A stretch of 64,000 nt of DNA from Patescibacteria group bacterium (GTDB lineage Bacteria > Patescibacteriota > Patescibacteriia > UBA9934 > GWF2-40-263). The stretch's first letter is position 1, and every line of letters starts with the position of its first letter. The position numbers and the translations under genes were made by a program. The stretch lies in the NCBI GenBank assembly GCA_035290185.1, contig DATDUW010000038.1:233-64232 (forward strand), in the 5' to 3' direction. Of this stretch, positions 15,290-42,138 are shown piece after piece. The notes beneath the pieces were generated by a model. It searched no databases and was not told the DNA's origin. It was given only the letters and a program-made list of their open reading frames with translations.

Positions 15290-15293
15290 ACCT

Positions 15294-18040: not shown

Positions 18041-18048
18041 TTGCGCTT

Positions 18049-21746: not shown

Positions 21747-21857
21747 ATCCTCTCCAGGAGATCCGACTCAAAAATATACCTTTTTATGGTATCGTCCTGC
21801 CTTGTTTTTTCGTCTAGTCGTTTACACACCGAAGCCCCATCCTATGGGGCGAAGGTG

Positions 21858-21951: not shown

Positions 21952-22099
21952 ATAAATACGGATTCATTTTTTTGGCTTCCCGCATCTTACTCAAATCTTT
22001 CAGATTGAGCAAGGCCGCCTTTTGAGGTATTTTGAGGTTTTCGATTTTTTGGCTGGATGATGGGGAAAGAGATAAAATGAAGTCTATCTTTTCCAAACT

Positions 22100-22531: not shown

Positions 22532-22624
22532 ACGTCTCTCAACAGAAAAGATCGTCGGTCTATAGTGAGTGGTGAAGGAAAAACCTGACAAAATCAGGCT
22601 TTTTTGTTACGCTGTGGCCGGTTT

Positions 22625-22712
22625 GGAGAGGTGTCCGAGTGGTTTAAGGAGCCAGTCTTGAAAACTGGTATACCGCAAGGTATCAAGGGTTCGAATCCCT
22701 TTCTCTCCGCCA
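22625..22712 (+). tRNA. tRNA-Ser (anticodon UGA), CCA encoded
   Basis: Acceptor GGAGAGG/TCTCTCC, anticodon arm CCAGT-CTTGAAA-ACTGG, long variable arm, T-arm AAGGG-TTCGAAT-CCCTT, G-CCA. Confidence 0.9.
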
Positions 22713-22803
22713 TCGGTCCGCTGAAGCGGACCTACGACGTGACGAATCCGCATGTGTGGTCCGCGAAAGCGACCGGTGACTCCGTCGTGTATGGTTAAAT
22801 TCT

Positions 22804-23037
22804 ATGCATTATGTCTACAGTTTGAAGTGTCGGGACGGATGGTACATAGGGTGTACAAACGATTTGAAGGACCGACTTCAAAGACATGAAAGAGGAGATG
22901 TTCCGGCGACAAAAGGTCGTCTACCGGTAAAGCTGGAATTTTATTTTGGGATAGAAGATAAAATCAAAGCCTTTCAATTTGAAAAATATCTGAAATCCGG
23001 ATCTGGAAGGGCCTTCATAAACAAGCATTTAGCTTAA
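22804..23037 (+). CDS. small GIY-YIG nuclease-family protein (77 aa)
   Basis: HYVYSL..YIGCTNDLKDRLQRHERG..EKYLKSGSGRAFINKHL. It is a paralogue of 21510..21746 and lies 91 nt downstream of tRNA-Ser(UGA). Confidence 0.85.
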   Translation: MHYVYSLKCRDGWYIGCTNDLKDRLQRHERGDVPATKGRLPVKLEFYFGIEDKIKAFQFEKYLKSGSGRAFINKHLA

Positions 23038-23047
23038 ACGGTCCTCT

Positions 23048-26171: not shown

Positions 26172-26248
26172 GCGCCCGTAGCTCAGTTGGATAGAGCATC
26201 AGCTTGCGGAGCTGAGGGTCGCACGTTCGAATCGTGCCGGGCGCACCA
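26172..26248 (+). tRNA. tRNA-Arg (anticodon GCG), CCA encoded
   Basis: Acceptor GCGCCCG/CGGGCGC, D-arm GCTC-AGTTGGATA-GAGC, anticodon arm TCAGC-TTGCGGA-GCTGA, T-arm GCACG-TTCGAAT-CGTGC, A-CCA. Confidence 0.9.
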
Positions 26249-27150: not shown

Positions 27151-29301
27151 TCAGCCGGAGAGGATGTTTACGATTTGCTCAACCACAGCATCCCAGGAAT
27201 AGCGTTCTAGGTTTTTTCTTCCATTGGCGACAAGGCGTTCGCATAAATCCTTTTCATCTGCGAGGCGCGTCATGCTGGCAGCGAGAGCTTCTGGGTCGTT
27301 TGGATCTGCAAAGAGGGCGGCGTCTTCTCCGATTTCCTTGAGAGTCGGGATGGAAGAGGCAAGCACGGGAACGTGTGCACGGAACGCTTCAAGCATGGGA
27401 AAAGCGAAGCCTTCCTCGTAGGAAACAAGGGCAAGCATGGACGCTTGGGACAGAAGCTCGGCTTTCTTTTCCTGACTGACATAGCCGAGCTCTTCGACGC
27501 CGGGCTGGCGTAAGAGCGGCACAATCTTCTCGAATCCATAGCCTGGTTTTCCAGCCAAGACCAGTCGCCAGGTCGGATGTGTTTCACGGAAGAGGGAAAA
27601 GGCGCGGAGGAGATTTACAACATTTTTCTTTTCCTCCATGCGGCCGATGAAAAGGACGAATGGCGTTGTTGGAGCATCGGGAGAAAAATTTGGAGGAGGT
27701 TCTTCGTCTGGAATTCCCCATCCGGTTACAGCGATTTTTCCTTCCGGCCATCGCAGGAGGGCTACGAGGTCTTTTTTCACCGCCTGGGTTGGGACGATGA
27801 CACACGTACAAAGACGTTTTGCTCGCCACAGGTCCAAACGCATGTAAAGACGTTCACGCAAACGATAGGCCTGTGGGGTGCGGAGAAAGGAAACGTCGTG
27901 AATGGCGCGCACGGTTTTTTGGGGACAGAAAAAAGGAAGGGTGTGTACGGGAACGAATAAGGCGTCCGGCCGGTCGCGAAGCAGGGCGTGTGAGAGGCCG
28001 ATGAGCGTCCAGAAGCGGGGGAGGGAAATGACGCGCTGGGCATTTTTGGGGAGCCAAGGAATTTCTCTTGGAGTATAAAAAAGAGGAGAAAGTGTTGCGG
28101 TTTGTCCGCAAGACAGGCGGGAAAGAAGCGCATCGCTGACGACTTCCACGCCTGTTTTTTGTACGCCGTCTACGCTGCGGGACGCATCAATAGCAAGCCG
28201 AAGTTTTTTTTCGAGGATGGTCCCTTTTAACGCCTGTTCAAAACGTTCGATGGAAAACCGCTGGGCCTGCACTTCGCAGGCGGCCCGCATCTCCCGTGTG
28301 CGAGCAGGCGTCAACGTTTGCACGGCTTCAACGAGATCTTCCACTCGATAAATTTTGGGAACGAGAAGACCCGTTTCATTTGGAATAATGCTTTCTGGTA
28401 GGCCGCCTTCATCCACGCCAATGCACGGTTTTCCCGCAGCCATTCCTTCCACAGGCGTCATACCAAAGTCTTCGTCCACGGGGATGTACAGAGTAGCTAT
28501 GCACGTTCCGACCAGGCGTTTTAATGTGGCATCGTCGACCCAGCCGAGACAGGTGATGTTTGGAGATCCCTTGGCAAGTTCGGCGATCCGTTCGGCCTCC
28601 TCTCCTCCGGAGGCAATGACAAGTTTCTTGTCAGGCATTTTTTGAAAGGCGCGCACAATGTCATCCACGCGTTTGAGACCATCGAGGCGCCCGTAAGACA
28701 GGTAAAAATCCTCCTGTCCTTCCCAGACGAATCGTTCGGTGTGGATGGGCGGATAGACCACGCGGGATTCCCGGCGACAAAAGCGCCACAGGCGGTCGTG
28801 GACGTTTTTTGAATTCGTCATGATCGTTTGCATGCGAGAAAGCCCGAGACGGTAAAGGAAACGGATGCCCCATTTTCCAAGGTCGTAATAAACCAGACGT
28901 TTTAAAAAAGAAGGTTCAGCGGCCCGGCGCAAGGGAAGCAGATCATAAACGTACCGGACGGGCGAATGACAATAATAGACTGTTTGCTTTCCTTTGAGGG
29001 GGCGAAGGGCAGCGGAAAGACCGTTGTTTCCGGAGAAGATGATTGTGTCGTAATTTTTGAGGAGCTTGCGGGTCTTCCACCAGAAATTCCATTGAGCACG
29101 GAAGTAACGGAAGACCATGGCGTGCGGTTCGCCCTTGTCTAGAATGACAAGCCCGTGCGGAACGTCCGATTTTGGATAGGTTTCCTCTGTCCAAAACTCC
29201 GTGACAATGTCCGCTTTGAGGATTCTGGCCAAATCCAACACCAAGCGCTCGGCCCCGCCGCGGAACTGGAACCGGTCATGAATAATGAGGATTTTTTTCA
29301 T
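27151..29301 (-). CDS. fused double GT4-family glycosyltransferase
   Basis: The start is MKKILIIHDRFQFRGGAERL at 29301. There are two GT-B/GT4 signatures: EDFGMTPVEGMAAGKPCIGV, and in the second half EGFAFPMLEAFRAHVPVLAS. Confidence 0.85.
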   Translation of the reverse strand: MKKILIIHDRFQFRGGAERLVLDLARILKADIVTEFWTEETYPKSDVPHGLVILDKGEPHAMVFRYFRAQWNFWWKTRKLLKNYDTIIFSGNNGLSAALRPLKGKQTVYYCHSPVRYVYDLLPLRRAAEPSFLKRLVYYDLGKWGIRFLYRLGLSRMQTIMTNSKNVHDRLWRFCRRESRVVYPPIHTERFVWEGQEDFYLSYGRLDGLKRVDDIVRAFQKMPDKKLVIASGGEEAERIAELAKGSPNITCLGWVDDATLKRLVGTCIATLYIPVDEDFGMTPVEGMAAGKPCIGVDEGGLPESIIPNETGLLVPKIYRVEDLVEAVQTLTPARTREMRAACEVQAQRFSIERFEQALKGTILEKKLRLAIDASRSVDGVQKTGVEVVSDALLSRLSCGQTATLSPLFYTPREIPWLPKNAQRVISLPRFWTLIGLSHALLRDRPDALFVPVHTLPFFCPQKTVRAIHDVSFLRTPQAYRLRERLYMRLDLWRAKRLCTCVIVPTQAVKKDLVALLRWPEGKIAVTGWGIPDEEPPPNFSPDAPTTPFVLFIGRMEEKKNVVNLLRAFSLFRETHPTWRLVLAGKPGYGFEKIVPLLRQPGVEELGYVSQEKKAELLSQASMLALVSYEEGFAFPMLEAFRAHVPVLASSIPTLKEIGEDAALFADPNDPEALAASMTRLADEKDLCERLVANGRKNLERYSWDAVVEQIVNILSG

Positions 29302-29386
29302 AGGTGACCCAAGCATAGCAATGGCTTTTTCGTCTGTAAAACGTTTCCTTTCTTTTTGCAAGTGAGATAGGTAGAATTCCGTCCGT

Positions 29387-31159
29387 ATGCGTCCGCTCCT
29401 CGAGGCAGCAAATTTGGAAAAGGCCTATGGCCGGCAGATCGTTCTACAGGGGCTTTCTTTTATCGTTCCTGAAGATGCTCATATTGCGCTTATTGGTCGC
29501 AACGGTTCGGGAAAAACAACGCTTTTACGCCTCATGGCTGGCGATGAAGAAGCGGACCGTGGGATGGTCCGGCCTATGTCCTGGACGCGACTGGGGGTTC
29601 TCAGACAACAGGAAGAACTGCCCAATGATCGGATGACGGTTGATTATCTTTCCCAGGATAGCGGAAAGCCGCCATGGGAATGTGCCAAACTTGCAGCACG
29701 GTTCGGATTGCATCCAACGGATTTGGCCCTGGCGCCAGCTGCGCTTTCCGGCGGGTATCAGATGCGCGTGAAGCTCGTTCGTGTCTTGCTTGAAGATCCA
29801 ACCCTTCTTCTTTTGGACGAGCCTGTAAACTATTTGGATCTTCCAACCCTTCTTCTTCTCGAAGCCTTTCTCAAGGAGTATGCCGGATCCTTCGTGATGA
29901 CGTCCCACGACCGTGAGATTCTCCAAAACGTTTGTACGACGACATGGGATCTTTCGAAAGGCAAATTGATAACATTCCCAGGCGATGTCGAAACGTATTT
30001 GGATTGGAAAGAGGAGCAGGCCGAATATGCGCGACGGACAAATAAACGTCTGCGCAAGGAAATGGCGGATGCTCAGGCCTTTGCCGATCGTTTTCGCGCC
30101 AAAGCCAGTCAGGCCACGCGGGCCCAGAGCAAACTTAAACACATTACCAAGCTGCGGGCACGGTTGCGTTCGTTGGACGATGATCTCCCGACCGTTGCCT
30201 TTCGTATCCCGTGTCCGTTGGTTATTCCCGGAACAGCTTTGCGCTGTGAGGGGCTTGGTGTTGGATACGGAGATAAAATAGTCGCACAGAATATTTCGTT
30301 GGAGGTTCCGCGTGGCGCCAAGGTCGCGATCGTGGGCGAAAACGGTCGCGGCAAATCAACGTTACTTCGGACCCTTGCGGGTGTTCTTCCGTCGTTAGAG
30401 GGAACCATGAAGTGGTGGCATCGAGCAGACATTGGATATTTTTCGCAGCAGGATAATGAAACGCTGTCAGGCCAGGAAACGGTTCTTCAAGCGCTCACAA
30501 AAGCTGCTCCACCAGATGCTTCGGCGGAACGGATTCTTGCCGCGGCCGGTGCCTTCCTGTTCCACGGCGATGATCTGGAAAAATCCTGTTCTGTTCTTTC
30601 CGGAGGGGAACGGGCACGCGTGCGTTTGGCTCGTTTGGTTTTGCGTCAGCACAACGTCCTTCTCCTCGATGAGCCCACAAACCACTTGGATGCGGAAACC
30701 GTAGAAATTTTGGCTCGAGCCCTGAAGGAGTATTCTGGAACCGTTTTCGTTGTCTCTCACGCCCGAACCTTTATGAATGCGCTGGCAGAGCGTATTTACG
30801 AAGTGCGAAACGGATCGGTTCGACACTTTCTTGGCACGTACGAGGAATACGTCTGCGAACTCACGGAATTTACCGAACAGTCTACGCATGAGCCAGTGGT
30901 CGTCTCAAGCTCGGCGGACATAGATCGTCGCGAACACTTTCTTCGCAATCGTGAACGTCGGCGGTTGCAGAAAAAGTTGGAGGAAAAAATAGATCGGTTG
31001 GAAAAGGAGAAGAGTGGAATTCTCGCGTATTTTTTCGAGAACCCGACCGACTATGCACCGGAAAAATCCATTCGGCTGGATGAAATCGGGGAAGCGTTGG
31101 ATGCGTTGGAAAAAGAGTGGTTGGGGTTGGAAGAAATGAATGACTCCACAGTACAGTAA
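29387..31159 (+). CDS. ABC-F family ATPase (two ABC domains, no TM domain)
   Basis: GRNGSGKTTLL, LSGGYQMRV and LLLDEP in the first domain. GENGRGKSTLL, LSGGERARV and LLLDEP in the second. The C-terminal tail is coiled-coil. Confidence 0.9.
   Translation: MRPLLEAANLEKAYGRQIVLQGLSFIVPEDAHIALIGRNGSGKTTLLRLMAGDEEADRGMVRPMSWTRLGVLRQQEELPNDRMTVDYLSQDSGKPPWECAKLAARFGLHPTDLALAPAALSGGYQMRVKLVRVLLEDPTLLLLDEPVNYLDLPTLLLLEAFLKEYAGSFVMTSHDREILQNVCTTTWDLSKGKLITFPGDVETYLDWKEEQAEYARRTNKRLRKEMADAQAFADRFRAKASQATRAQSKLKHITKLRARLRSLDDDLPTVAFRIPCPLVIPGTALRCEGLGVGYGDKIVAQNISLEVPRGAKVAIVGENGRGKSTLLRTLAGVLPSLEGTMKWWHRADIGYFSQQDNETLSGQETVLQALTKAAPPDASAERILAAAGAFLFHGDDLEKSCSVLSGGERARVRLARLVLRQHNVLLLDEPTNHLDAETVEILARALKEYSGTVFVVSHARTFMNALAERIYEVRNGSVRHFLGTYEEYVCELTEFTEQSTHEPVVVSSSADIDRREHFLRNRERRRLQKKLEEKIDRLEKEKSGILAYFFENPTDYAPEKSIRLDEIGEALDALEKEWLGLEEMNDSTVQ
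31064..31122 (+). repeat. 59-bp direct repeat, copy 1 (inside the ABC-F 3' end)
   Basis: AAATCCATTCGGCTGGATGAAATCGGGGAAGCGTTGGATGCGTTGGAAAAAGAGTGGTT is identical to 36221-36279. Confidence 0.95.
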
Positions 31160-31271
31160 AAAATTAACAACACCCTGGATTTAACGCATTGTCATTCTGA
31201 AGGAGTCTGTTTTCTTGCGACGACTGAAGAATCTTTTTTTGAACCAGGAATCCTTAGAAGGTAAAGCTAAA

Positions 31272-31322
31272 AAAATATTGTCAACTAAATAGGTTGACAA
31301 TATTTTAATTTTGTGGTATTCT
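31272..31322 (+). promoter_or_regulatory. promoter with overlapping 14-bp perfect inverted repeat (operator-like)
   Basis: AAAATATTGTCAAC (31272-31285), 7 nt, GTTGACAATATTTT (31293-31306). TTGACA (31294-31299), 17 nt, TATTCT (31317-31322), with a TGG extended -10. Confidence 0.55.
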
Positions 31323-31367
31323 TTTTTTAGTTCTTTTCAAAAAGGCCTTTAAGTTCTGGAGGTTGCA

Positions 31368-31706
31368 ATGCAGCAGCTTACGTCTGGACAAACGATCGCC
31401 GTGACACCGATTGCCAATCCCTCCAAGGGAGTTGAGTATAAGGCAGTTCAGTGCGGCAATCGCGCCCTCCTTATGGAGGGAGGGGGGTTTGTCTGTGCTT
31501 GTTGTTTGGATAGGTGTCGAACGGAGCGAGCTGAAATTGCCGAACAGCTCGCCAGAAGCGGTATCACCGAGTGTGCACTGACGTGCGCGCGGCATTGGAA
31601 CGAAGACCCTGAGGCCTCCAGGCTCGTAAGAGCCGTGGAGGAGTCTCAATGGGGACAAGCGATCGGTCCCACGTTGTGGTTGGTGGGGCTGGTGGAGGAG
31701 AAGTGA
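31368..31706 (+). CDS. small Cys-rich protein (112 aa), unknown function
   Basis: GGAGG lies 6 nt before the ATG. It has its own promoter and terminator. Codon first positions are G-rich, unlike the antisense 170-aa ORF. Cys motifs are CGN..FVCACCLDRC..C..C. Confidence 0.55.
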   Translation: MQQLTSGQTIAVTPIANPSKGVEYKAVQCGNRALLMEGGGFVCACCLDRCRTERAEIAEQLARSGITECALTCARHWNEDPEASRLVRAVEESQWGQAIGPTLWLVGLVEEK

Positions 31707-31739
31707 GCCGTTCGCGCACTCGGACGGCTTCTCAAAAGC

Positions 31740-31765
31740 GTACCGTTTCGGCGGTACGTTTTTTA
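31740..31765 (+). terminator. intrinsic terminator
   Basis: CGTACCG-TTTCGG-CGGTACG-TTTTTT. It is preceded by a second hairpin, GCCGTTCG..CGGACGGC. Confidence 0.7.
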
Positions 31766-31795
31766 ATGGGGTGTTCGGATTTTGTGTTGTTGAAG

Positions 31796-32554
31796 CTATC
31801 GTTTCCCCATTCGCCACAAGCTTTCAAAAAGTTGTTGGTATCCTTTCACCAATGTTTCGTGCCTTATTTTAATGGCTGTCACGGGCGTTGTATCGTCCGA
31901 ATAGATAATATTCAAAACAACGCCTGCTTCCGGGTAAATATGAATACCGGATGGGTTTTCAATTTCTGATGGCAAATACCGGACGTTATAGACTCCTTCC
32001 GCCTCAAGTTCGGCGGTCATAGTCATCCGTTGTGGCTCGTAGGCAAGCATGCGGATTTTCAATTTTTGCGCATGGGCGACGCGATGATATTCCTTCCAGA
32101 TGGGACGCATGGTGTTTGCCATGAATGTTTCGTCTCCTGTTCCCAGCACGTATTTTGTTGCCCCTTTCGGTAGGGTTTTGATAATGCTGGTAAGGAGGGC
32201 TAAATATTCCTCATTACCTTGGTGAACGGTAATTTCCTGTATGCCCTTGGCCAGCATCCGTCCGATGGTTTCTGACGTTTCTGACGCAAGATGAAATTTC
32301 TTTTCGTATTCTTCCGCCAAGGCGTTCGGTGCCGTTGCGGTAAAATGCTTGCGTCCCCGCATGACTTTTTCGCTCACCAGTTTTCTGAAAACTAAATGGT
32401 CCAAAGAGGTGTACACGACATTTCGATGTAGTCCGGTTGCTGTAATTAAAGGGCCAGCGGTGCATGGTCCCTTTTCAAGAAGGGCGGTATAGACCACGGC
32501 GTCGTGGGGCGGAAAGTCCAGCTCACGCAGATTTTTCTGTAAAGATTCGTTCAT
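31796..32554 (-). CDS. TrmB-like transcriptional regulator
   Basis: The N-terminal wHTH reads LRELDFPPHDAVVYTALLEKGPCTAGPLITATGLHRNVVYTSLDHLVFRKLV. The start is probably MNESLQ at 32554; the ORF extends to 32614. Confidence 0.65.
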   Translation of the reverse strand: MNESLQKNLRELDFPPHDAVVYTALLEKGPCTAGPLITATGLHRNVVYTSLDHLVFRKLVSEKVMRGRKHFTATAPNALAEEYEKKFHLASETSETIGRMLAKGIQEITVHQGNEEYLALLTSIIKTLPKGATKYVLGTGDETFMANTMRPIWKEYHRVAHAQKLKIRMLAYEPQRMTMTAELEAEGVYNVRYLPSEIENPSGIHIYPEAGVVLNIIYSDDTTPVTAIKIRHETLVKGYQQLFESLWRMGKR

Positions 32555-32623
32555 AATTAAATCGTTTTTATTCCCAATCGATATTCCACGGTCTTGGCGC
32601 GGGAAGGGGTTCATTTAAAATTT

Positions 32624-33637
32624 TTACACCTTTCGAACCACCACGTCCTTCAAGTACTGATTCTTAAAATCCGTCTTCTCTCCGATTTTCGCCTTTCCGT
32701 CTGAAACAAATCGAACGGCCAACGGTTTTTTATACTTATTGCTTAGATGCTGGACAAGGCAGAGAATTTCGATAATACGATCCTTGTTCTGGTCGATTCC
32801 CATCGGATACGTGTCAATCCCAAGGCCCGAGTGCAGGCTCAAGAAAATATTCCGTTCAATATCGAAGTTTCCGCGCTCGTATTCGTCCGCGAGTTCGAAG
32901 TCTTCCAGACAGGGAAGCATGAGGCCGCACAATCCTATGGGCCGGGGATTATGTTTTTTGATGAATTCCGTGATTTTCGTATAAACGTCCGTTGTGGCTG
33001 ATCGGCTGAAATCCATTCCGAGCCTTTTGATAAAGTTTACCAAACTGCTTTTTCCTTCAAATAGCGGCGCAATGGAGGAATCAATGCCGAGATATCCTTC
33101 CGTATTTTTCAAAATTTCATCGATCTCCTTCCAAACCGTTTCCATCCGTGTGAACCACTCTTCCAATGTTGAACAGCCTTCCGATAAATCCGTTGACTGC
33201 AATCCAATACTGAAACCTTTGTATCCGAATTTAGCAGAAGGGAAGTAGGGGCTGGAGTCGGGTAAATTAAATCCGTATGTGAAACGGAACGTGTTATCCG
33301 GTTTGTTTCGGATGATTTCAAAAAGAGTATCGACGTGGTCGAAAGTGATTGGCTCATTCGTCAGATCAACGTTTGTCGCTTTATTGTCGGAGGAAAGAAA
33401 ATCATCGAAGACCTTTTGAAATTCGGTAAAAGACAGGCTGCCGGCTCCCAGAAGAATTCCACTTTCCGTCAGAGCGGCCTGGTCCGCCTGATCGTGATAA
33501 TCCGAGAGGCAGATTCTTTTGGTTTGGATGACGAACTGCCTTTCTGAAAGAAGATGGGATATTTCTTCGAGCCGTTGAATTTCTTCGAACCCGGCTTGAT
33601 TCGAAAAGAGACAGATCGTGCGAATGATTTTGTTCAT
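32624..33637 (-). CDS. DUF711 (UPF0210)-like protein, tentative
   Basis: MNKIIRTICLF... and GLCGLMLPCLEDFELA recall UPF0210 motifs. It is shorter than typical members. Confidence 0.45.
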   Translation of the reverse strand: MNKIIRTICLFSNQAGFEEIQRLEEISHLLSERQFVIQTKRICLSDYHDQADQAALTESGILLGAGSLSFTEFQKVFDDFLSSDNKATNVDLTNEPITFDHVDTLFEIIRNKPDNTFRFTYGFNLPDSSPYFPSAKFGYKGFSIGLQSTDLSEGCSTLEEWFTRMETVWKEIDEILKNTEGYLGIDSSIAPLFEGKSSLVNFIKRLGMDFSRSATTDVYTKITEFIKKHNPRPIGLCGLMLPCLEDFELADEYERGNFDIERNIFLSLHSGLGIDTYPMGIDQNKDRIIEILCLVQHLSNKYKKPLAVRFVSDGKAKIGEKTDFKNQYLKDVVVRKV

Positions 33638-33838
33638 ACGAGGAAATTTCCTCCATTCTATCAGTATTTTTCGGCTTTTGTAGATGGTTGTTCGATCGTT
33701 TCAAGGAAAATTCTTCTGTTGTAGATTTCTATTCTACAATAAGAAATGATATTTCATTGCTAAAATTGAATAATTGTTTTAGACTTACAGTCTTAAGTTT
33801 AAATTTATTGGACGATTTATCCCTTCTCTTTTACCGTT

Positions 33839-34618
33839 ATGGATGCCTTACGAGATCTCAAAGAGGCCTTGGAATCCTTGGGAGCGACGCCTAATGCGGT
33901 TGCTTTCTATCTTCAAAGTTACAAAGACGGTAAATCAACGGTCGGAAAAGTTGCCGCGGCTTGCGGGATGGATCGCTCCTCCGCCTACTTGGCATGTGGT
34001 CAACTTCAAACGCTGGGATTGGTTGAGGAAGGACATGAGTCAGGAGGAAAGATTATCTGGGCCAAGTCTCCGAAAGCGATTTTGGGGAGACTGCGCGCGG
34101 AAATGCGACGGTTGCGGAAGCGGTACGACGATGTTGAGGTGGCTCTTCCGGAACTTCTGGCTGGTTACAGCGCCGAAGCTGCCAAACCCGTCCTCCAGTT
34201 CTTTTCGGGAAAGGAAGGATTACATCGGATCACGGAAGACGTCCTCGAACACGCGCAAGGCGAAATCTTGCTGCTGACGAACCAGTTCACGGAAAAGAAC
34301 GTCTTCAGCGAATCGGACCATCAGGAATTTATTTCCGAACGTCTGCGTCGAAGCTTGGAGATTCGTGTATTGGCTGCGGATACGCCGGAAGCGCGCGAGC
34401 TTCAGAAATGCGATAAAGAGTGCCTGCGGGAAACCTGTCTCGTGAAAGGCGAACCGTTTACGAGTGAAACTTATATCTATGGCGACAAGGTGGCCATGCT
34501 TGATTTCGATCACGAGGTGGTTGGCTTCATTGTCCGGTCGAAGGAATTCACCCGGGCCCAACGGTGGATGTTTGAACAGATCTGGAAAAAGAGCGGAGGG
34601 AAGAATCATGTTGACTGA
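33839..34618 (+). CDS. TrmB-like transcriptional regulator
   Basis: The N-terminal wHTH reads LESLGATPNAVAFYLQSYKDGKSTVGKVAAACGMDRSSAYLACGQLQTLGLV. It is divergent from the DUF711-like gene. Confidence 0.6.
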   Translation: MDALRDLKEALESLGATPNAVAFYLQSYKDGKSTVGKVAAACGMDRSSAYLACGQLQTLGLVEEGHESGGKIIWAKSPKAILGRLRAEMRRLRKRYDDVEVALPELLAGYSAEAAKPVLQFFSGKEGLHRITEDVLEHAQGEILLLTNQFTEKNVFSESDHQEFISERLRRSLEIRVLAADTPEARELQKCDKECLRETCLVKGEPFTSETYIYGDKVAMLDFDHEVVGFIVRSKEFTRAQRWMFEQIWKKSGGKNHVD

Positions 34619-35201
34619 ACCCGTCTTCGTTGCGCAAATCGAACCGAGGGAGAATGTTGAGAAGGAGGAAGAGAGAGCAGACTTGAATTGGAATGAAAAA
34701 GAGGCATGTCTGCCTCATTGGAACTGGTGTGGAATTTGTTGCGTACGAATGATCATCTTAGGCCTTGGCAGGGAGGCGCCGAGTCTGCCGGAAATGTATC
34801 AGGTGGCCTTTGACCGTTATGGAGTATTTCGGATGGTGGACGGTCATATCCAAGGCGCTTTCCATCGGCAGCTCGCCGAGTATATCCAAGGCGAATTCAA
34901 CCTGTCTGCCGTTGCCCGCCGCGGCCTGTCGCCGGACGATGTGGCCGCTTGGATCGCGCGCGGCCATTATGTTATCGCTTCAGTTTCCTCCGAAATTCGA
35001 GAGATGAGTGGTAAAGAACCAAAGCGCCGAAACGGGCATCTGGTTGTGGTTTACGACGTCCAGGAAACCGAAGAGGGGCGAACGTTCGTCCTTCATAATT
35101 CCGCCGGCTTCTTTCGTACCGGAACACAGGAGGCCGTTGTTGTCTCCGAAAAACGTTTTGCGCAATGCTTTTCGGGAAACGGGATTATCGTTTCTGTGTA
35201 A
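34608..35201 (+). CDS. C39-like (papain-fold) peptidase domain protein, tentative
   Basis: GGAGGGAAGAATC precedes an ATG that overlaps the previous stop. The candidate catalytic Cys is in HWNWCGICCVRMII and the candidate His is in NGHLVVVYD. Confidence 0.4.
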   Translation: MLTEPVFVAQIEPRENVEKEEERADLNWNEKEACLPHWNWCGICCVRMIILGLGREAPSLPEMYQVAFDRYGVFRMVDGHIQGAFHRQLAEYIQGEFNLSAVARRGLSPDDVAAWIARGHYVIASVSSEIREMSGKEPKRRNGHLVVVYDVQETEEGRTFVLHNSAGFFRTGTQEAVVVSEKRFAQCFSGNGIIVSV

Positions 35202-35221
35202 AAGTTATTTATCTTTCACGT

Positions 35222-36133
35222 ATGTCCGATCAAATCCGTGTTGCCATCCTAACCGGCGGGATAAGTTCCGAGCGCGAAATTGCCTTACAGTCTGCAGAAG
35301 GTGTGCGTCAGGCGCTGGGCTTGTATGACGACGTTGAAATGTTTGATCTTCCTTCACAGCTGGATCTTTTTTTGGAAAAACGCGGGGAGATCGACGTTGC
35401 CATCCCGATTTTCCATGGAAAGGGAGGGGAAGACGGTTCCATTCAGGGATTTCTAAATACGTTGAATATTCCGTTTCTTTTTTCTGATACAGAAGCTCAT
35501 GCCATCGCCCTTAACAAAGTCATCACCAAAGAACTTGCGAGAAGCGCGGGAATTCATACCGCGCCTTTCGTTGTTTTGGAAAAGAAAAATAGAAACGAGG
35601 GAACCTATAAAAGACCGTGTGTTATTAAGCCTATTGATGGCGGAAGTTCCATTGGGATCACCTTGGCAATGGATCAAGAAAGTTTTGAAAAAGGTTTGGA
35701 CGAAGCATTCGCGCATGGTTTCACCCTTCTGATTGAAGACTCTATTCCAGGTGACGAATATACCGTTGCTGTCATTGAGGAGAACGATAAACCTGTCGCT
35801 CTTCCGGTTATTGCGATCAAATCCAAAAACGCGTTCTTTGATTTCGAGAGCAAGTATAATCCACACCTTGTCGAAGAAGTTTGTCCTGCGCCCATTGAAG
35901 ATTCCCTACGAGAACGCCTTCAGGAAATGGCGATAAGGATTCATCAACTTATCGGGGCGCGGCATCTTACTCGTTCTGATTTTATCGTGGATAAGGAAGG
36001 GGTGATTTGGTTTTTGGAGATAAATACGATCCCGGGTCAGACGTTGAATTCGCTTGTTCCAAAAGCTATTCGTGCCTCAGGGCGAAAAATAGAGGACGTG
36101 TTCACTGAATGGATTTGTGACGTTCTTCATTGA
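35222..36133 (+). CDS. ddl: D-alanine--D-alanine ligase
   Basis: IRVAILTGGISSEREIALQSA, FHGKGGEDGSIQGFL, ATP-grasp motifs, and the C-terminal EINTIPGQT. Confidence 0.9.
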   Translation: MSDQIRVAILTGGISSEREIALQSAEGVRQALGLYDDVEMFDLPSQLDLFLEKRGEIDVAIPIFHGKGGEDGSIQGFLNTLNIPFLFSDTEAHAIALNKVITKELARSAGIHTAPFVVLEKKNRNEGTYKRPCVIKPIDGGSSIGITLAMDQESFEKGLDEAFAHGFTLLIEDSIPGDEYTVAVIEENDKPVALPVIAIKSKNAFFDFESKYNPHLVEEVCPAPIEDSLRERLQEMAIRIHQLIGARHLTRSDFIVDKEGVIWFLEINTIPGQTLNSLVPKAIRASGRKIEDVFTEWICDVLH

Positions 36134-36171
36134 AAGATCTGTTATGGCCCATACCTACGTTAAGGCCTTTT

Positions 36172-36312
36172 TCGGCGACGCGGTTTTTCCGATTTGTCGG
36201 AAGAACGGACTACACGCTGCAGAAATCCATTCGGCTGGATGAAATCGGGGAAGCGTTGGATGCGTTGGAAAAAGAGTGGTTAAAATTAGAAGAAGGTGTT
36301 GAATCAATTTGA
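36172..36312 (+). pseudogene. relic 3' end of an ABC-F gene (contains repeat copy 2 at 36221-36279)
   Basis: It translates to ..RTDYTLQKSIRLDEIGEALDALEKEWLKLEEGVESI*, versus the ABC-F C-terminus ..PTDYAPEKSIRLDEIGEALDALEKEWLGLEEMNDSTVQ*. No ABC domains lie upstream. Confidence 0.7.
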
Positions 36313-36388
36313 CAAAAAGAGAAAAATCTTCTAGGGTTGCTCAAGTTGATAAATGATTGGTTTTTCAAAAAGAAAGAGAGGAAGGGGA

Positions 36389-37054
36389 ATGAAGAAAACA
36401 AATAAGCTGCTTTCTGTAGCAGCAATGATGGTTCTTTTCACGGTCGGAAGCAGTGTGGAGGCACAGGTCGCCGATTTGTCCCAATGCCCGCTCCAGGCGT
36501 TCAGGGATGCGGACGGTGACGAATATGGCGATCAGACAGAGACCATCTGCCTCCGGATTAGCGGTGGAATGGGAGTGGTGCTGGCGGTGGATGGGTATGT
36601 TCTGGACGACGACAGTGCCAACAACGACTGCGATGACGCCAAGGCCGCGGTTCATCCCGGCGTTGTTGAGACCGCCAATGCCATTGATGACAACTGCGAC
36701 GGGCAGGTGGACGAAGGAATCCGTGTGACCGCCACCCCGAAGGCTTTGCCACCAGTGGCAAAGAAGGTCGTGAAGCGAATGCCGGAGAACACCGACGCCC
36801 GTTGCATGGACCGCATCGACAACGACGGAGATGGCAAAAGAGATCGAGACGATCCCGATTGTTACATTTCGGTTGTCCGAGAGGTCAAGAATCTTGGTGG
36901 GGAGAAGGCTTTCTCTGGGAAGGTAATGACGCACCTCATTGAATGTCGATATTATACTTTTGAGTATGAGGAGTGTGCATGCGAGGTGTGGGTAGGGTAC
37001 GAGTACCCGGATACACGCTGTGATACCTTGAAAAGGTATAAAGTCGACGATTGA
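36389..37054 (+). CDS. secreted Cys/Asp-rich protein with a DCDD..PG..E..DDNCDG..DE metal-binding-type motif
   Basis: There is an RBS plus MKKTNKLLSVAAMMVLFTVGSSVEAQ signal peptide. Motifs are NDCDDAKAAVHPGVVETANAIDDNCDGQVDEG and DNDGDGKRDRDDPDC. Confidence 0.7.
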   Translation: MKKTNKLLSVAAMMVLFTVGSSVEAQVADLSQCPLQAFRDADGDEYGDQTETICLRISGGMGVVLAVDGYVLDDDSANNDCDDAKAAVHPGVVETANAIDDNCDGQVDEGIRVTATPKALPPVAKKVVKRMPENTDARCMDRIDNDGDGKRDRDDPDCYISVVREVKNLGGEKAFSGKVMTHLIECRYYTFEYEECACEVWVGYEYPDTRCDTLKRYKVDD

Positions 37055-37082
37055 GGCCTACTATCGAGAGAAACGAAAACAA

Positions 37083-37111
37083 CCCGCGGGAGATCTTCCC
37101 GCGGGCTTTTT
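37083..37111 (+). terminator. intrinsic terminator
   Basis: CCCGCGGGA-GATC-TTCCCGCGGG-C-TTTTT. Confidence 0.7.
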
Positions 37112-37176
37112 AATTTTGTTTAAGGTTGTTTTCTTAAACGATAATTTGCCACGTAATCGACAGTAGCACGGAAAAT

Positions 37177-37214
37177 CAAAACCTCCCTCAGGATGAACCC
37201 GAGGGAGGTTTTTT
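37177..37214 (-). terminator. intrinsic terminator of csp (bidirectional architecture)
   Basis: CCTCCCTC-N11-GAGGGAGG, flanked by AAAA and TTTTTT. Confidence 0.65.
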
Positions 37215-37225
37215 GCTGAACGCGA

Positions 37226-37435
37226 TTAGGCATTCACGGAGACGCGCTGGACATTCACGGCGCGGGGACCCTTTGGAGAATCCTCGACCTCGAACGTAAC
37301 CGTGTCGCCGGTGCGCAGATCGTTGAAATCCATATCAACGAGGGCGGACATGTGAAAAAACACGTCCTTGTCCTGTCCGTCCGGGGTGATGAATCCAAAC
37401 CCCTTGTCGGTCAGGCGTGCGACTTTACCAGTCAT
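37226..37435 (-). CDS. cspA: cold-shock protein (CspA family)
   Basis: The motifs KGFGFI (RNP1) and VFFHMS (RNP2) are present. The protein is about 69 aa. Confidence 0.9.
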   Translation of the reverse strand: MTGKVARLTDKGFGFITPDGQDKDVFFHMSALVDMDFNDLRTGDTVTFEVEDSPKGPRAVNVQRVSVNA

Positions 37436-37611
37436 AGGCACTGCTGTTAGAGTGAATAATCTGCAAATTCCTGCCTCTTCGCGGAAATTCGACAGATCTC
37501 CACTCCGAGCGTCCTTTGCTTACTCTACCCTAGCATCTTTATTGAAAAAAGGCAAGGGGGAGAGGGTGAACTGTCAAGAGAATTCAGAGCGTGCTATAAA
37601 AGGGAAAAACT

Positions 37612-38859
37612 ATGACCATTGCCGTTCTTGGCGGGGGAGCTGCCGGACTTATGGCTGCAGCAACGATTCTGGAGATGGATCCGGAGGCGCGGATTCTTCT
37701 CGTTGAGCGCAATGATCGTCTTGGAAAAAAAGTCCTGATGACAGGCGGCGGAAGGTGCAACGTGACAACGGGGCTTGACGACATCCAGGCAATCCTTTCC
37801 CGCTATCCCCGCGGAGGAAAATTTTTTGCATCGGCTCTGCGTCGGTTTCCACCCGAAGCCGTCCGTGCGTGGTTTGAAATGCACGGGGTTCCTCTTAAGA
37901 TCGAGAAGGACGGGCGCGTGTTTCCGAAATCAGACAGAGGAGGGGACGTGGTTCGTGTCTTTGAACGTCTTTTTGAAAGTTCCCGCATCCGTCTTTTTCT
38001 CAACACCTCTGTTTCTCGCGTTAAAAAACAGGGAGGCATCTTTAGGATTTTTTTTGAGGAGCAGCAGGAACCGCTGCAGGCGGATAAACTTATTCTTGTT
38101 ACAGGCGGACAGGCCTATCGTCATACGGGTTCAACCGGTGATGGTTATGCGTTTGCTGATTCGTTGGGACACACAATTACGAAGCTTGCTCCCAGCCTCA
38201 GCGCTCTTTTAACGCGGGAAACATGGCCGACATCCATTTCTGGTCTCTCCTTTCCAAAGGTGCGACTCATGGCGCGCGACAATAAGTCCCTTTCCTCCAT
38301 CGGTCCTTTTCTCTTCACACATAAGGGCATCAGTGGTCCGGCAGTTTTTGCCCTGTCTTCTTTGACGGCATTTGAAACTTATAGCGCTCGACAACCCATG
38401 AAAGTTTCCATTGATTTTTTTCCGGATTTCTCTCAAGAAAAAATTCGTGAAGAGATTCAAAAAAACATCACTTTTAATCCTAAACGGAGTTTTGTGAACG
38501 CTTTGGCTGGAATTGTTCCAAAGTCTCTCTCAGAAATTTGTCTGCGGGAAGTGGCTCTGCCCGGCGATCGACATGCAGGCGAGATTGGAAAAAAAGAGAT
38601 GGCGCGCTGTGCCACCTGGTTGAAAGGTGCTCTATTGTCTGTTGTCGGTCGCGTGGCCGGTGACGAATTTGTCACAGCCGGAGGGGTAGATCTTAAGGAA
38701 ATAAATCCGATCACGATGGAGTCAAAAATTTGTTCAGGACTGTTTATTGCCGGCGAGCTGTTGGATATAGATGGGTTTACTGGTGGGTTCAATCTTCAGG
38801 CCTGTTGGGCAACAGGACGGGCAGCAGGAGGGGGCGCTGTTCTCAATCAAAAAAAGTAG
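37612..38859 (+). CDS. HI0933/BaiN-like NAD(P)/FAD-dependent oxidoreductase
   Basis: IAVLGGGAAGLMAA dinucleotide motif, GGGRCN, FTHKGISGPAV, and the C-terminal GELLDIDGFTGGFNLQ. Confidence 0.85.
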   Translation: MTIAVLGGGAAGLMAAATILEMDPEARILLVERNDRLGKKVLMTGGGRCNVTTGLDDIQAILSRYPRGGKFFASALRRFPPEAVRAWFEMHGVPLKIEKDGRVFPKSDRGGDVVRVFERLFESSRIRLFLNTSVSRVKKQGGIFRIFFEEQQEPLQADKLILVTGGQAYRHTGSTGDGYAFADSLGHTITKLAPSLSALLTRETWPTSISGLSFPKVRLMARDNKSLSSIGPFLFTHKGISGPAVFALSSLTAFETYSARQPMKVSIDFFPDFSQEKIREEIQKNITFNPKRSFVNALAGIVPKSLSEICLREVALPGDRHAGEIGKKEMARCATWLKGALLSVVGRVAGDEFVTAGGVDLKEINPITMESKICSGLFIAGELLDIDGFTGGFNLQACWATGRAAGGGAVLNQKK

Positions 38860-38899
38860 ACGGATTGTGGGTTATTTTCCTTGTTTTTTTGGATGATCC

Positions 38900-39832
38900 G
38901 TGCTTAAAATGACCTGTCTTTATTCTTTATTTTTTCCTCTTCTGGACGGAATTTTAAAACGTATGGGAGAAAGTTTTTTCAGAGGTGAAGAGCAGGCCGA
39001 TTTCTCCAAAATAGAGGGTGAATTGCAAGCAGAAGGATTGGAACCGACTCCGGACGAGTTTGCTATTCTGGCGGCAGGTAAGTCAAAGAAAGAGACACCA
39101 ATACCGTCAAGAGAAAGTGTCTTTGATTTTTTGAAGGACACAAAGGGTCTTCAGGAATATTGTAAACGCAAACGGGAGGTTCGGAGGGCATTTAAGAAGT
39201 TTTTGGATATTCCGGATCATTTGGATTTTAAAGGAGGAGATGTTGGTCATGCTGGTTTCTGGACAGCGACGGCAAAAGCGTTCGGACACGAATCTCCCCA
39301 AGAACTCTCTTTGGAAGAAAGGACAGCAACCCTCCTCTTATTTACCATGGCTGTTGAGCGGTGGAAAGCATGGGCACAGCACGGCAATTGGGATCTAGAA
39401 AAAGACATCCCCCTGCTTTCCGAGGCCGTCAATCATCCGGAGACCGATGAACAAGAACCGGGGACCGTGAACCTTTTTCGCCAAGAAATAAATCCCGTGA
39501 TTCATTGGAGCACGTTGCAAACGGACACGTTTCGTCTTGATGATACTTCTTTGTGGTTTCCCCAGGCGGTTCGGGCTTTCTTAACCGACGAGCGGACAAA
39601 GGGGTTTTTTCCGACATTACCTGCAGAGAATTTTGATAAGAAAATGGAAGAGATTGGAGCTCTTGTCAGAGAGGATACCTATGTTCCTTCAACGCTTGGA
39701 ACAGGTGTGTCAAAAAAGACGGCTGATCTTCAAACGTCCCTTGGAAAAGAAGTGACAAAGCGGGTCCGGGAGGTCATCATTCCGCGGTTTCTTGTTTCTT
39801 TGGAAACAAAGAAACAAGTGCCTCAAACGTGA
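38900..39832 (+). CDS. hypothetical protein; start uncertain (38900 GTG, 38909 or 38963 ATG)
   Basis: It is a long ORF with a coding-like composition. No motifs were recognised. Confidence 0.5.
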   Translation: MLKMTCLYSLFFPLLDGILKRMGESFFRGEEQADFSKIEGELQAEGLEPTPDEFAILAAGKSKKETPIPSRESVFDFLKDTKGLQEYCKRKREVRRAFKKFLDIPDHLDFKGGDVGHAGFWTATAKAFGHESPQELSLEERTATLLLFTMAVERWKAWAQHGNWDLEKDIPLLSEAVNHPETDEQEPGTVNLFRQEINPVIHWSTLQTDTFRLDDTSLWFPQAVRAFLTDERTKGFFPTLPAENFDKKMEEIGALVREDTYVPSTLGTGVSKKTADLQTSLGKEVTKRVREVIIPRFLVSLETKKQVPQT

Positions 39833-39874
39833 TTCAAAGTTTTTTGTCTCCTTTTACCTACCATAGGGGTAGAT

Positions 39875-40378
39875 ATGCGTCTCCCAACTAGGCGATCTGA
39901 ACAAGCTCAACTCCTCAAGAGGCAAGACGATCCGTATCTGACACCTTCTGCCATTCAAAGCATGAAGGATGAGCTTCAGGATTTGGAAAAACGCCAGCGC
40001 CAGCGCGCGATTCTGGAGGTTCAGCGAACGGCCGAAATGGGGGATTTTTCCGAAAACGCGGCTTATCAAATGGCCAAGGGACGATTGCGTGGCATGAACG
40101 CCCGCATTACTACTCTGCAAGAACAGCTAAAGACCGCTGTCCCAATCGAAGCCGGGACAGGCGGCCGTATCCGCATCGGTTCAAAAGTGAGCGTCCGCGT
40201 CAATGGAAAGGATACCGAGTTTGAAATTGTGGGATCCCAGGAGACGAATCCGTCGTTGGGACGCATTTCATATTCTTCCCCGCTTGGGATGGCCCTTTTG
40301 GGTCATGTCTTGGGGGAGATGGTTCCGATTCGCCTGGGGAAGGGAGAGGTTTTTTATGAAATTTTAAACGTGATCTAG
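39875..40378 (+). CDS. greA: transcription elongation factor GreA
   Basis: The N-terminal coiled coil carries EMGDFSENAAY. The C-terminal domain reads GSKVSV....EFEIVGSQETNP..GRISYSSPLGMALLG. Confidence 0.85.
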   Translation: MRLPTRRSEQAQLLKRQDDPYLTPSAIQSMKDELQDLEKRQRQRAILEVQRTAEMGDFSENAAYQMAKGRLRGMNARITTLQEQLKTAVPIEAGTGGRIRIGSKVSVRVNGKDTEFEIVGSQETNPSLGRISYSSPLGMALLGHVLGEMVPIRLGKGEVFYEILNVI

Positions 40379-40384
40379 TTCCCT

Positions 40385-41089
40385 ATGGGAAGCCCTGAAC
40401 GCGCTTTTCTTCCGTCTGATGATGAGCCACCTTTATGGGAGCCTCCTCCTGAGAGAGCAAAAGGGCTCCGAATGGGACGCATTTTGGAATTTCATTCAAA
40501 GGGAGAAGCATCCGCGCGGAGTTCTGAATCCGCGGAAAAAGAAATGGTCGCGCAACAGGCTTCTGCGCGCGAGGAAGCTCGACGTACTTCAGACAGAGTT
40601 TTGAAAGAGGAGCGAAGGGATCTTGCTAAACGATCGCATGACGCGTTTCACGTAAAGATAATGCCGCTTTTGGCTGAAAAAAAGAAGTTGGAAAAAGAGA
40701 ATTCAGGTTTTTTACATCGTTGGTTCGGACGTGGGGAAAGAAGAGTGAAACTTCGGGAAATTGAGGAAAGGCTTGGACAGTTGCAACCCAGGTTTGAGCA
40801 GGCAAAAAAAGAAATGGAGAGCGGAGAGGCAAGAGACAGCGCCTTTGTTTCGGAAAAGGATTCGAGGACCGCCCGTATCGAAACGCTTAAATCCGCCATC
40901 CGGTCTTTGGAAAAAACCATGGAGGCTTCCTTGACCCAGGGCGATCGTTCTAAAGCCTATGGATCGGCAAGTGCCACGTTTACGGATTTGTATCATTTGC
41001 GCCATGAGTTGGCGCAGTTACAGGCGCAAGGAGCCATTCGTGGAGCCGAAACGGCAGGTAATGATGAACACCATCGAAAAGCAGCTTAA
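40385..41089 (+). CDS. hypothetical coiled-coil protein
   Basis: The 234-aa ORF starts 6 nt after the greA stop. It is Glu/Arg/Lys-rich and helical. Confidence 0.55.
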   Translation: MGSPERAFLPSDDEPPLWEPPPERAKGLRMGRILEFHSKGEASARSSESAEKEMVAQQASAREEARRTSDRVLKEERRDLAKRSHDAFHVKIMPLLAEKKKLEKENSGFLHRWFGRGERRVKLREIEERLGQLQPRFEQAKKEMESGEARDSAFVSEKDSRTARIETLKSAIRSLEKTMEASLTQGDRSKAYGSASATFTDLYHLRHELAQLQAQGAIRGAETAGNDEHHRKAA

Positions 41090-41112
41090 TTTTTTTTCAG
41101 ATTCTTTTAAAG

Positions 41113-41141
41113 AAAAAACCGTCCTTCGTGGACGGTTTTTT
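41113..41141. terminator. bidirectional terminator
   Basis: AAAAAA-CCGTCC-TTCGT-GGACGG-TTTTTT, between convergent genes. Confidence 0.7.
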
Positions 41142-41155
41142 CAGAGGCGGAAAGA

Positions 41156-41425
41156 CTAGTCTCGATCGGCAATTATGTCTACAAGGTCTATGGCGGGTTG
41201 AAGATAAAATCCACCACTCTTTTTTAATTCCACCATTTTTTGTAATTTTTCGACATCCTCAGGCGTGGCCTTTTTCAACAGTTCGATTCTACAGCTAGCC
41301 TGATCAAAAAAATCTCTGATGTGTTGCATCTCTTCCGGAGTAAACCTGGTGTCATTAAATGTTTCAAGAGGGGTTGGTCCGCTTTCTCCAGCCATAGAGG
41401 AAAGATTAATTTTTGTCATTGACAC
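41156..41425 (-). CDS. small acidic hypothetical protein (89 aa)
   Basis: The ORF is bounded by the terminator at 41113-41141. No motifs were recognised. Confidence 0.5.
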   Translation of the reverse strand: MSMTKINLSSMAGESGPTPLETFNDTRFTPEEMQHIRDFFDQASCRIELLKKATPEDVEKLQKMVELKKSGGFYLQPAIDLVDIIADRD

Positions 41426-41568
41426 CTTAACATTTTTTTGAATTTTTGCAAGGGGGAGAGAAGAAAACTTTCATTTTCAAAAAGAACAAAACCGGGTGTC
41501 GCAAGGAGCGCGACAGCCCGGCTTTGAGATGGTTTTCCTGCAGAGAGGGTCCGAGCCCGCGAGGGGGT

Positions 41569-42138
41569 CTAGCGGTCGGAGTCGCCTTCGAGGCTGTCTT
41601 CTTCCTCGGACTCCGGCCCCTCACGCAGGTATTCCTCCAGCGTGATGGGCCGGCAGATGCCGAGCAGACGCCCAACGTCTTTTACCGTGCCACCTGGCTG
41701 GAGGTTGGCCCAGGAGATCGGGCACAGAGTTCCCCACACGCTCTCGCCCTGGTAGCTGGCCGAGGACTTCTCGGAGAGCATGAGCCCTTGCCTCGTGGCG
41801 AAGAGCCTAAAGTCATACGATCTCGTCCCTGAATCACCAGAGCCCTCGTGGGCGGTTGCTATCTCGATCCCCTCCACCACGACTTCTTTCATGGTGTTGC
41901 CGTTTTCGAAACCAGTGATTGAGGAGAACGTGATTCTTCCGACCTCGACCTCGAATTGGTCGAGCTTGGCATTTTCGAGTAGGCTGATGTCGGAAATGAC
42001 GCAGCCGTGCTTTCCGAGTGCCTTGACGAGGTCTGCTGGCGTGATCACATCACCGGAGGTGTTATTCAACGTGACACTCAAACCACGCCGAGCCAACTCG
42101 GCGATCAGATCGGACACCGACATTTCGTTGAGTTCCAT
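41569..42138 (-). CDS. hypothetical protein (189 aa), compositionally atypical (G/C-ending codons)
   Basis: It has a clean ORF and an acidic C-terminal tail. In its last 59 codons I count 46 ending in G/C, against 9 of the first 20 codons of pheT. Confidence 0.6.
   Translation of the reverse strand: MELNEMSVSDLIAELARRGLSVTLNNTSGDVITPADLVKALGKHGCVISDISLLENAKLDQFEVEVGRITFSSITGFENGNTMKEVVVEGIEIATAHEGSGDSGTRSYDFRLFATRQGLMLSEKSSASYQGESVWGTLCPISWANLQPGGTVKDVGRLLGICRPITLEEYLREGPESEEEDSLEGDSDR

Follow-up and report, generated by a model that had tools for sequence, protein, structure and literature searches.

Recombination at an ABC-F Gene 3′-End as a Possible Origin of a ddl-Containing Gene Block in Candidatus Uhrbacteria

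Introduction

The microcin H47 island of Escherichia coli, which has no integrase, carries imperfect direct repeats that recombine in their segments of identity (PMC3191183, PMC5426353), and cis-mobilizable elements (CIMEs) have been described in streptococci (PMC5704250; ICEberg, PMC6323972). Here, a 5,159-bp gene block is described in a 64,000-nucleotide stretch of contig DATDUW010000038.1 (assembly GCA_035290185.1, positions 233 to 64,232), which is referred to throughout as the window. In this window, the 3′-end of a gene encoding an ABC-F ATPase recurs as an orphan fragment downstream of ddl, and the two copies bracket six genes in the order orf112, a TrmB-like regulator, a DUF711 family protein, a second TrmB-like regulator, a C39-like peptidase and ddl (Table 1). 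The structure of the two copies makes it somewhat probable that DNA carrying a mimic of the ABC-F 3′-end was inserted into the end of the resident gene by recombination.

The window is chromosomal DNA from metagenome assemblies, and its host is an uncultured groundwater bacterium of Candidatus Uhrbacteria, within the Patescibacteria or Candidate Phyla Radiation (CPR). The ABC-F protein is identical to the copy on ENA contig ERZ27254852 k141_195247 (106 kb) and to NCBI HLD18185.1, and its nearest orthologues, with 78, 72, and 69% identity, all belong to Candidatus Uhrbacteria. Further sequences retrieved for comparison are referred to by L numbers.

The Duplicated ABC-F 3′-End

A repeat search and blastn identified a single direct repeat of 90 nt in which 78 of 90 positions are identical and the starts of the two copies are 5,159 nt apart. 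At its center lies a perfect core of 59 bp (31064–31122, identical to 36223–36281). The first-pass annotation of the window had reported this recurrence of the ABC-F 3′-end downstream of ddl, together with an identical core whose length and first interval hold and whose second interval, given as 36221–36279, was misplaced by 2 nt. The reading frame of the ABC-F gene runs through copy 1 to a stop codon at 31157–31159, and the target open reading frame (ORF) is thus kept intact. Copy 2, the orphan, begins 72 nt downstream of the ddl stop (36133), and its right arm extends to a stop codon at 36310–36312, which closes the tail KLEEGVESI; its match to residues 550–583 of the ABC-F protein has an E-value of 3e-12 and is not due to chance.

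The differences between the copies are not evenly spread. All 12 mismatches are confined to the outer 31 of the 90 nt (p about 1.6e-5 under a uniform spread), such that copy 1 and copy 2 agree at 11/18 positions in the left arm, 59/59 in the core and 8/13 in the right arm. The arms are nevertheless homologous in register, as the first-pass annotation had proposed for the diverged flanks: the motifs TDY and L.LEE persist although codons differ synonymously (ACC/ACG, TAT/TAC, and TTG/TTA), and the in-register similarity has a binomial p of about 0.002 for the left arm and 0.009 for the right. The peptides quoted for these flanks, PTDYAPEK against RTDYTLQK on the left and EWLGLEEMNDSTVQ against EWLKLEEGVESI on the right, the latter two each followed by a stop, are correct. 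Beyond the 90 nt no homology was detected, gapped local alignments of the outside regions scoring not above shuffles; tblastn found no further ABC-F-like fragment in the 64-kb window, and no terminal inverted repeats were present at the ends of the block.

The orphan is contained in an ORF of 60 codons (36130–36312), the TTG start of which shares bases with the ddl stop (TTGA). With this arrangement, translational coupling could yield a short ABC_tran_CTD-like peptide.

Mosaic Structure and Polarity of the Two Copies

Both copies were aligned with the 3′-ends of three ABC-F orthologues. Among true orthologues, the left arm (NPTDYAPEK) is the most conserved segment, with 14 of 18 nt, and the core is poorly conserved, with 33–36 of 59. 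Copy 1 shows this 14/18 identity to the orthologues in its left arm, as expected for the resident gene. The orphan reverses the pattern, since its left arm matches copy 1 at 11/18 and its core at 59/59. Because the core reaches only 33–36/59 in orthologues, its identity in the two copies cannot reflect selection on the protein, and the reversed conservation indicates that the two copies are recombinant mosaics sharing a lineage-specific segment rather than a gene and its decayed duplicate. A pseudogene or paralogue relic would be expected to have decayed uniformly while the functional copy kept the orthologous end; instead, the mismatches are clustered, the orthologue-like tail is that of the orphan and no remnant lies upstream.

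The tails give the comparison a direction. When scored against 110 orthologue tails, the orphan tail KLEEGVESI outscores the current tail GLEEMNDSTVQ in 99, and among the 30 closest in 24. It is also of orthologous length: the 6 additional nt found in the current tail are missing from it, as they are from the tails of the 78 and 69% orthologues, out of three aligned. As the orphan tail is the more orthologue-like, the KLEEGVESI end that follows the core in copy 2 is probably the original end of the ABC-F gene, which would now use an imported one. A displaced original gene end at the far junction, as postulated in the first-pass annotation, is accordingly what the orthologues favor.

Relatives Without the Block

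The block is absent from the orthologous locus in the 72 and 69% relatives, and the locus of the 78% relative is rearranged. In the 72% relative (L089), the ABC-F gene is directly followed by a gene for an HI0933-like flavoprotein with 61% identity to that of the window, and in the 69% relative (L090) a hypothetical gene and GreA come next, in that order. HI0933, the hypothetical gene and GreA are all located beyond the block in the window. Comparison of these orders indicates that the block, the MopE-motif gene next to it and a cold-shock protein (CSD) gene are additions to an ancestral order of ABC-F, HI0933, hypothetical gene and GreA. A recurrent hotspot was also looked for, and no duplicated ABC-F end was found in the four relative genomes examined. 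The contig scan with the ABC-F alignment was keyed on generic Walker-B and ABC signature patterns; it returned nearly all unrelated phyla and one Uhrbacteria locus at 52%.

The MopE-motif gene (36389–37054) and the cold-shock protein gene (37232–37441, minus strand) lie between ABC-F and HI0933 in the window, and the 72 and 69% relatives have neither gene at that place, which indicates that the interval between ABC-F and HI0933 has accepted more than one insertion.

The nearest homologues of ddl, which is present as a single copy within the window, are 60–63% identical and occur in unrelated settings, unaccompanied by the other genes of the block. Similarly, the DUF711 protein is about 70% identical to many Patescibacteria proteins, the closest of which are again in unrelated contexts lacking the other block genes. 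The block is therefore a lineage-specific mosaic and not a conserved module. An ancestral linkage of DUF711 to ABC-F, suggested by a locus in which DUF711 lies near CSD, an ABC-F gene and HI0933 (L103), was rejected, since the ABC-F of that locus shares only 29% identity and is thus a paralogue.

Filled Junctions and a Candidate Empty Site

At least seven independent assemblies (ERZ27254852, L002, L003, L095, L118, L119, and L120) give an identical left junction, and at least six (ERZ27254852, L094, L095, L111, L113, and L114) an identical right junction. Most of these junction contigs are k141 contigs, with a k longer than the whole 90-nt repeat. Assembly support across both repeat copies, which the first-pass annotation had proposed to check at the read level, is provided at the contig level.

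One contig, L004 (ERZ28563657, BioSample SAMN03842443), joins window positions 28227–31122 seamlessly to 36223–41648 and has exactly the structure of an attB-type product, that is, of an empty site. Its ABC-F protein (P0001, 588 aa) contains PTDYAPEK and ends in EWLKLEEGVESI and a stop; L004 also has private single-nucleotide polymorphisms (SNPs) at 28271 and 30899. We consider it about equally probable that L004 is real and that it is a collapse.

Logan contigs are built with k = 31, and no 31-mer spans the 59-bp core; these contigs break inside the cores and so do not discriminate between filled and empty sites. A 5160-bp Logan contig (L096) was considered as an excised circle and rejected, because it spans 31093–36252, a stretch made up of the 5100 unique bp and 30 nt from either core, as a contig break would give if k = 31.

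Proposed Insertion and Its Alternatives

The incoming DNA would have been 5.16 kb long, most simply circular, and would have carried a look-alike of the ABC-F 3′-end of about 90 nt, which recombined with the resident gene within the 59-bp identical stretch in a Campbell-type integration. Copy 1 would then combine the resident gene with the incoming tail, leaving ABC-F intact with a new 11-codon end, and copy 2 would combine the incoming (or decayed) left arm with the resident original 9-codon tail, left as an untranslated orphan after ddl. Because the block contains no recombinase, the exchange would have been performed by host functions, either RecA-type or short-homology recombination on the 59 bp, or by a recombinase whose gene lies outside the block. 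In E. coli and other bacteria, 59 bp of identity suffices for low-frequency homologous or short-homology recombination. Through the same repeats the block would be precisely deletable and might still be mobile. The first-pass annotation had suggested that the block entered by site-specific or homologous recombination at the ABC-F 3′-end; insertion inside the shared core is supported by the mosaics, by their polarity and by the relatives, whereas a self-contained integrative element is not established.

Several observations weigh against insertion as a discrete element. No integrase, transposase or excisionase was detected in the block or its immediate flanks with Pfam, NCBIfam and PHROGs, in agreement with the first-pass annotation, nor among the larger ORFs of the window scanned with Pfam; the block also matched no phage family. 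No relatives of the block were found in IMG/VR (queried with the core, the second TrmB-like regulator and orf112) or in plasmid and phage collections (queried with the whole block by blastn). The attP-type junction, in which ddl would be followed by orf112, is absent from the contigs with orf112, all seven of which have ABC-F upstream. The cargo consists of ordinary chromosomal-type Patescibacteria genes, including the probably essential ddl, and its composition is only mildly atypical (GC content 47.1 vs. 51.0%; tetranucleotide distance ranking 8th of 98 windows). In the left arm, homology continues beyond the core on its upstream side, which classical 3′-end-targeting integrases do not require. 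L004 is the only empty-site contig among the 8 places (9 contigs) that carry the downstream MopE gene, and its assembly, which from the naming of its scaffolds we infer to have been built with metaSPAdes, also holds an inter-organism chimera (L098) joined at a 21-nt shared string. The default largest k of metaSPAdes is 55, below the length of the 59-bp core. The chimera, and with it the unmatched tail of a contig from a sister assembly (L119), lowers the trust that can be placed in L004, and the chimera is a caution for the other contigs of that assembly set.

Two of these results also bear on points raised in the first-pass annotation. The circular junction for which it had proposed a search was not seen among the retrieved contigs, and the host-like composition that it had named as an argument against import is approached, the block being only slightly out of line with its surroundings. 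Metagenome contigs searched for exact matches to 40 nt of the core yielded none. Nor does the locus resemble a transposon or insertion sequence: there is no transposase, and the repeat, 59–90 nt long and imperfect, is unlike a short target-site duplication.

An unlikely alternative is natural transformation from a sister strain with a single homologous anchor (homology-facilitated illegitimate recombination), in which a donor ABC-F gene with the GLEEMNDSTVQ tail and the block entered together, the far end was joined at a microhomology just upstream of the recipient core, and the recipient 3′-end was left as an orphan with no circular element or att site. The lack of a recombinase in the block, its near host-like composition and the presence in the window of a ComFC-like competence gene (18591–19313), RadA and RecG are compatible with this course, and the patchy left arm of the orphan (ACNGACTA, then 4/9) resembles a microhomology joint. 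The same left arm, however, is similar to that of copy 1 in register at 11/18 positions, which this alternative must ascribe to coincidence (p about 0.002); moreover, it leaves the divergent tail of the donor unexplained, demands that donor and recipient cease to be identical precisely where the core ends on its right, and predicts a donor arrangement of which no example was found.

An origin in situ appears equally improbable. Here, the orphan would be what is left of an old local duplication, or of a second ABC-F paralogue in tandem, beside a long-resident block, gene conversion would later have homogenized the 59 bp, and L004 would be a recent repeat-mediated deletion or a misassembly. Paralogue deletion or gene conversion was the alternative named in the first-pass annotation and is retained as a rival. 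Variation within the block is in keeping with it: G/A at 32436 (L095, L099, and L100) and C/A at 34705 (L095) segregate among samples, so that the block is not brand new and has resided in the population long enough to carry SNPs of its own. The block genes are typical of Patescibacteria, GC content at third codon positions is host-like, hallmarks of mobile elements are lacking, and only distant relatives (78% or less) are at hand for dating the insertion. These features have to be set against the position of the orthologue-like tail, which is on the orphan and not on the functional copy, against homology that breaks off abruptly some 18 nt before the core and leaves no other trace of ABC-F, and against the absence of a duplicated ABC-F end from the four relative genomes; conversion between arms only about 61% identical is also mechanistically unlikely. 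Transformation from a sister strain and an origin in situ each fit fewer observations than insertion by recombination at the 59-bp core.

That the filled arrangement is an assembly artefact, with a foreign 5-kb contig spliced in at the shared 59-mer, is extremely improbable and was discarded, for although the sequence comes from metagenome assemblies and chimeric contigs with block DNA exist (L098 and L119), both junctions are the same in at least six to seven samples and with several assemblers, k141 contigs included.

If insertion and excision at the core are real, the locus would be a clean sequence-level example of the remodeling of a CPR chromosome through short homology at a conserved gene end, in a group of bacteria that rarely shows classical mobile elements. 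It would also place ddl, normally considered a core gene, on a potentially removable segment, and the filled and empty ABC-F sites would form a polymorphism that could be tracked in aquifer time-series metagenomes, which are the apparent source of the contigs. A broader and rather doubtful proposal is that CPR bacteria swap chromosomal gene cassettes without a dedicated recombinase, by means of a mimic of a conserved gene 3′-end: after uptake or circular excision, host recombination would insert or remove the cassette at the 59-bp core with the target gene left intact, and ddl would then belong to a strain-variable, reversible module of a natural groundwater population. Should L004 be a misassembly, what is left would be an unremarkable scar of a fixed insertion.

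Genes of the Block and Its Surroundings

The coordinates of the features are given in Table 1. The contents of the block agree with their earlier description as a Cys-rich protein, two TrmB-like regulators, a DUF711-like protein, a C39-like peptidase and ddl, the C39 match being barely above its cutoff.

Table 1. Features of the ABC-F locus and the adjacent gene block (window coordinates).
Feature	Coordinates	Strand	Evidence or remark
ABC-F ATPase gene, 590 aa	29387..31159	+	Pfam ABC_tran (two), ABC_tran_Xtn, ABC_tran_CTD; NCBIfam ABC-F
Repeat copy 1 (attL-like)	31046..31135	+	Left arm 31046–31063 (TDYAPE), core 31064–31122, right arm 31123–31135
Current ABC-F tail, last 11 codons and stop (GLEEMNDSTVQ)	31123–31159	+	Putatively imported with the block
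Perfect palindrome, 35 nt, 15-bp stems (AAAATATTGTCAAC-TAAAT-AGGTTGACAATATTTT region)	31272..31306	.	Sequence scan
orf112, small protein with 7 Cys	31368..31706	+	No family match; called as a gene in all contigs
TrmB-like winged-helix regulator 1	31796..32614	-	Pfam TrmB, 28.3 bits; PDB 3qph TrmB, E = 0.004
DUF711/UPF0210 family protein, 337 aa	32624..33637	-	Pfam DUF711, 1.6e-20, 73.8 bits
TrmB-like regulator 2	33839..34618	+	Weaker match; 20% identical to regulator 1 over the full length (distant paralogue)
Peptidase_C39_2-like protein, 197 aa as called	34608..35201	+	Pfam, about 24–25 bits vs. cutoff 24; weak assignment
ddl, D-alanine–D-alanine ligase, 303 aa	35222..36133	+	Pfam; NCBIfam PRK01372, 270 bits vs. 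cutoff 243
Repeat copy 2 (attR-like orphan)	36205..36294	+	Left arm 36205–36222 (TDYTLQ), core 36223–36281
MopE-motif Cys-rich secreted protein	36389..37054	+	Flank, first gene past the right junction; directly after ABC-F in L004

Gene callers place the start of regulator 1 at 32554, giving a protein of 252 aa. The possibility that the TrmB-like proteins are hidden recombinases was rejected, the TrmB/MarR winged-helix fold being their sole match. Upstream of orf112, within the block and close to its left edge, the palindrome overlaps a near-consensus promoter, TTGACA-17-TATTCT (31294–31322). Judged by its sequence, the palindrome probably acts as an operator, as a bidirectional terminator or as both, and the operator may be one for the adjacent TrmB-like regulators; Rfam showed no structured RNA family in the region.

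Many contigs from various samples and assemblers end within 32015–32199, inside the gene for regulator 1 (L002 at 32197, L094 at 32191, L097 at 32199, L098 and L102 at 32096, L101 at 32031, and L118 at 32037), and L119, from a sister assembly, runs on past this breakpoint with 71 nt that match no fetched sequence. These ends could reflect a local drop in coverage, chimeras or a breakpoint that varies among strains. L098, in which block DNA (32096–34606) is fused to a gene for an SrkA/APH-type kinase of another organism (L115, GC content 43.5%), was considered as a second location of part of the block and rejected, since its first 303 nt are derived from that kinase gene; L098 1–324 corresponds to L115 2559–2882, and the 21-nt identical string is window 34586–34606.

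The neighborhood of the locus is otherwise ordinary, with genes for a GT4 glycosyltransferase, RecG, RadA, ClpB, PheS/T and GreA, tRNA genes and a cluster resembling a type IV secretion system (T4SS). The T4SS-like region occupies 214–20100 and includes a VirB4/TraG-P-loop ATPase (15974–18040), very large ORFs without a Pfam match at 214–5391 (1725 aa) and 9815–13120 (1101 aa), and a further one at 13140–14825; the ComFC-like protein at 18591–19313 combines a double zinc ribbon with a phosphoribosyltransferase domain. A T4SS-pilin-like segment and an NlpC/P60 peptidoglycan hydrolase domain occur together in one protein (46950–48041, minus strand), which adjoins a DsbA-like thioredoxin (48028–48693) and RadA (45600–46925). 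The genes for tRNA-Ser(GCT), tRNA-Ser(TGA) and tRNA-Arg(GCG) lie within 21500–23040 and 26172–26248, and those for the serine tRNAs are flanked by two small GIY-YIG-domain ORFs at about 21510–21746 (minus strand) and 22804–23037 (plus strand).

Comparison With Known Systems

Genomic islands, integrative and conjugative elements (ICEs), integrative and mobilizable elements and prophages that target the 3′-end of a tRNA or protein gene share with the ABC-F locus a repeat of the target end, an intact ORF with an element-borne end, and a displaced end at the far junction. The ABC-F block differs from them in having no tyrosine or serine recombinase and no excisionase, transfer or phage genes; in addition, homology also extends upstream of the core, and no circular form was seen in contigs.

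Repeat-mediated insertion–deletion polymorphism, either RecA-dependent or slipped, offers a simpler parallel, because a 59-bp perfect repeat is present 5.16 kb apart and L004 is the exact deletion product predicted. Such a process explains loss only, and not the origin of the ABC-F-end look-alike after ddl.

With the H47 island, the block has in common a small size, extended imperfect repeats, the lack of its own recombinase, hybrid sites and a dependence on recombination supplied by the host, the last of which is conjectural here. Excision and integration of the H47 island were demonstrated experimentally, whereas the ABC-F locus offers one possibly artefactual scaffold. The H47 repeats do not correspond to a coding-gene 3′-end, and the H47 cargo is a microcin system, in contrast to the housekeeping-like cargo of the ABC-F block (ddl, DUF711, and regulators) and its CPR host. 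CIMEs provide the other close parallel, being chromosomal DNA between att-type repeats that has no recombination or conjugation genes and is in principle mobilizable in trans; they are defined by the integrase of a cognate ICE, and none is known here. On its sequence, the block would thus resemble the islands that target gene 3′-ends in all but an element-borne integrase, and appears to fit best, as a putatively mobile segment, among the more loosely defined integrase-less islets represented by the H47 island and the CIMEs.

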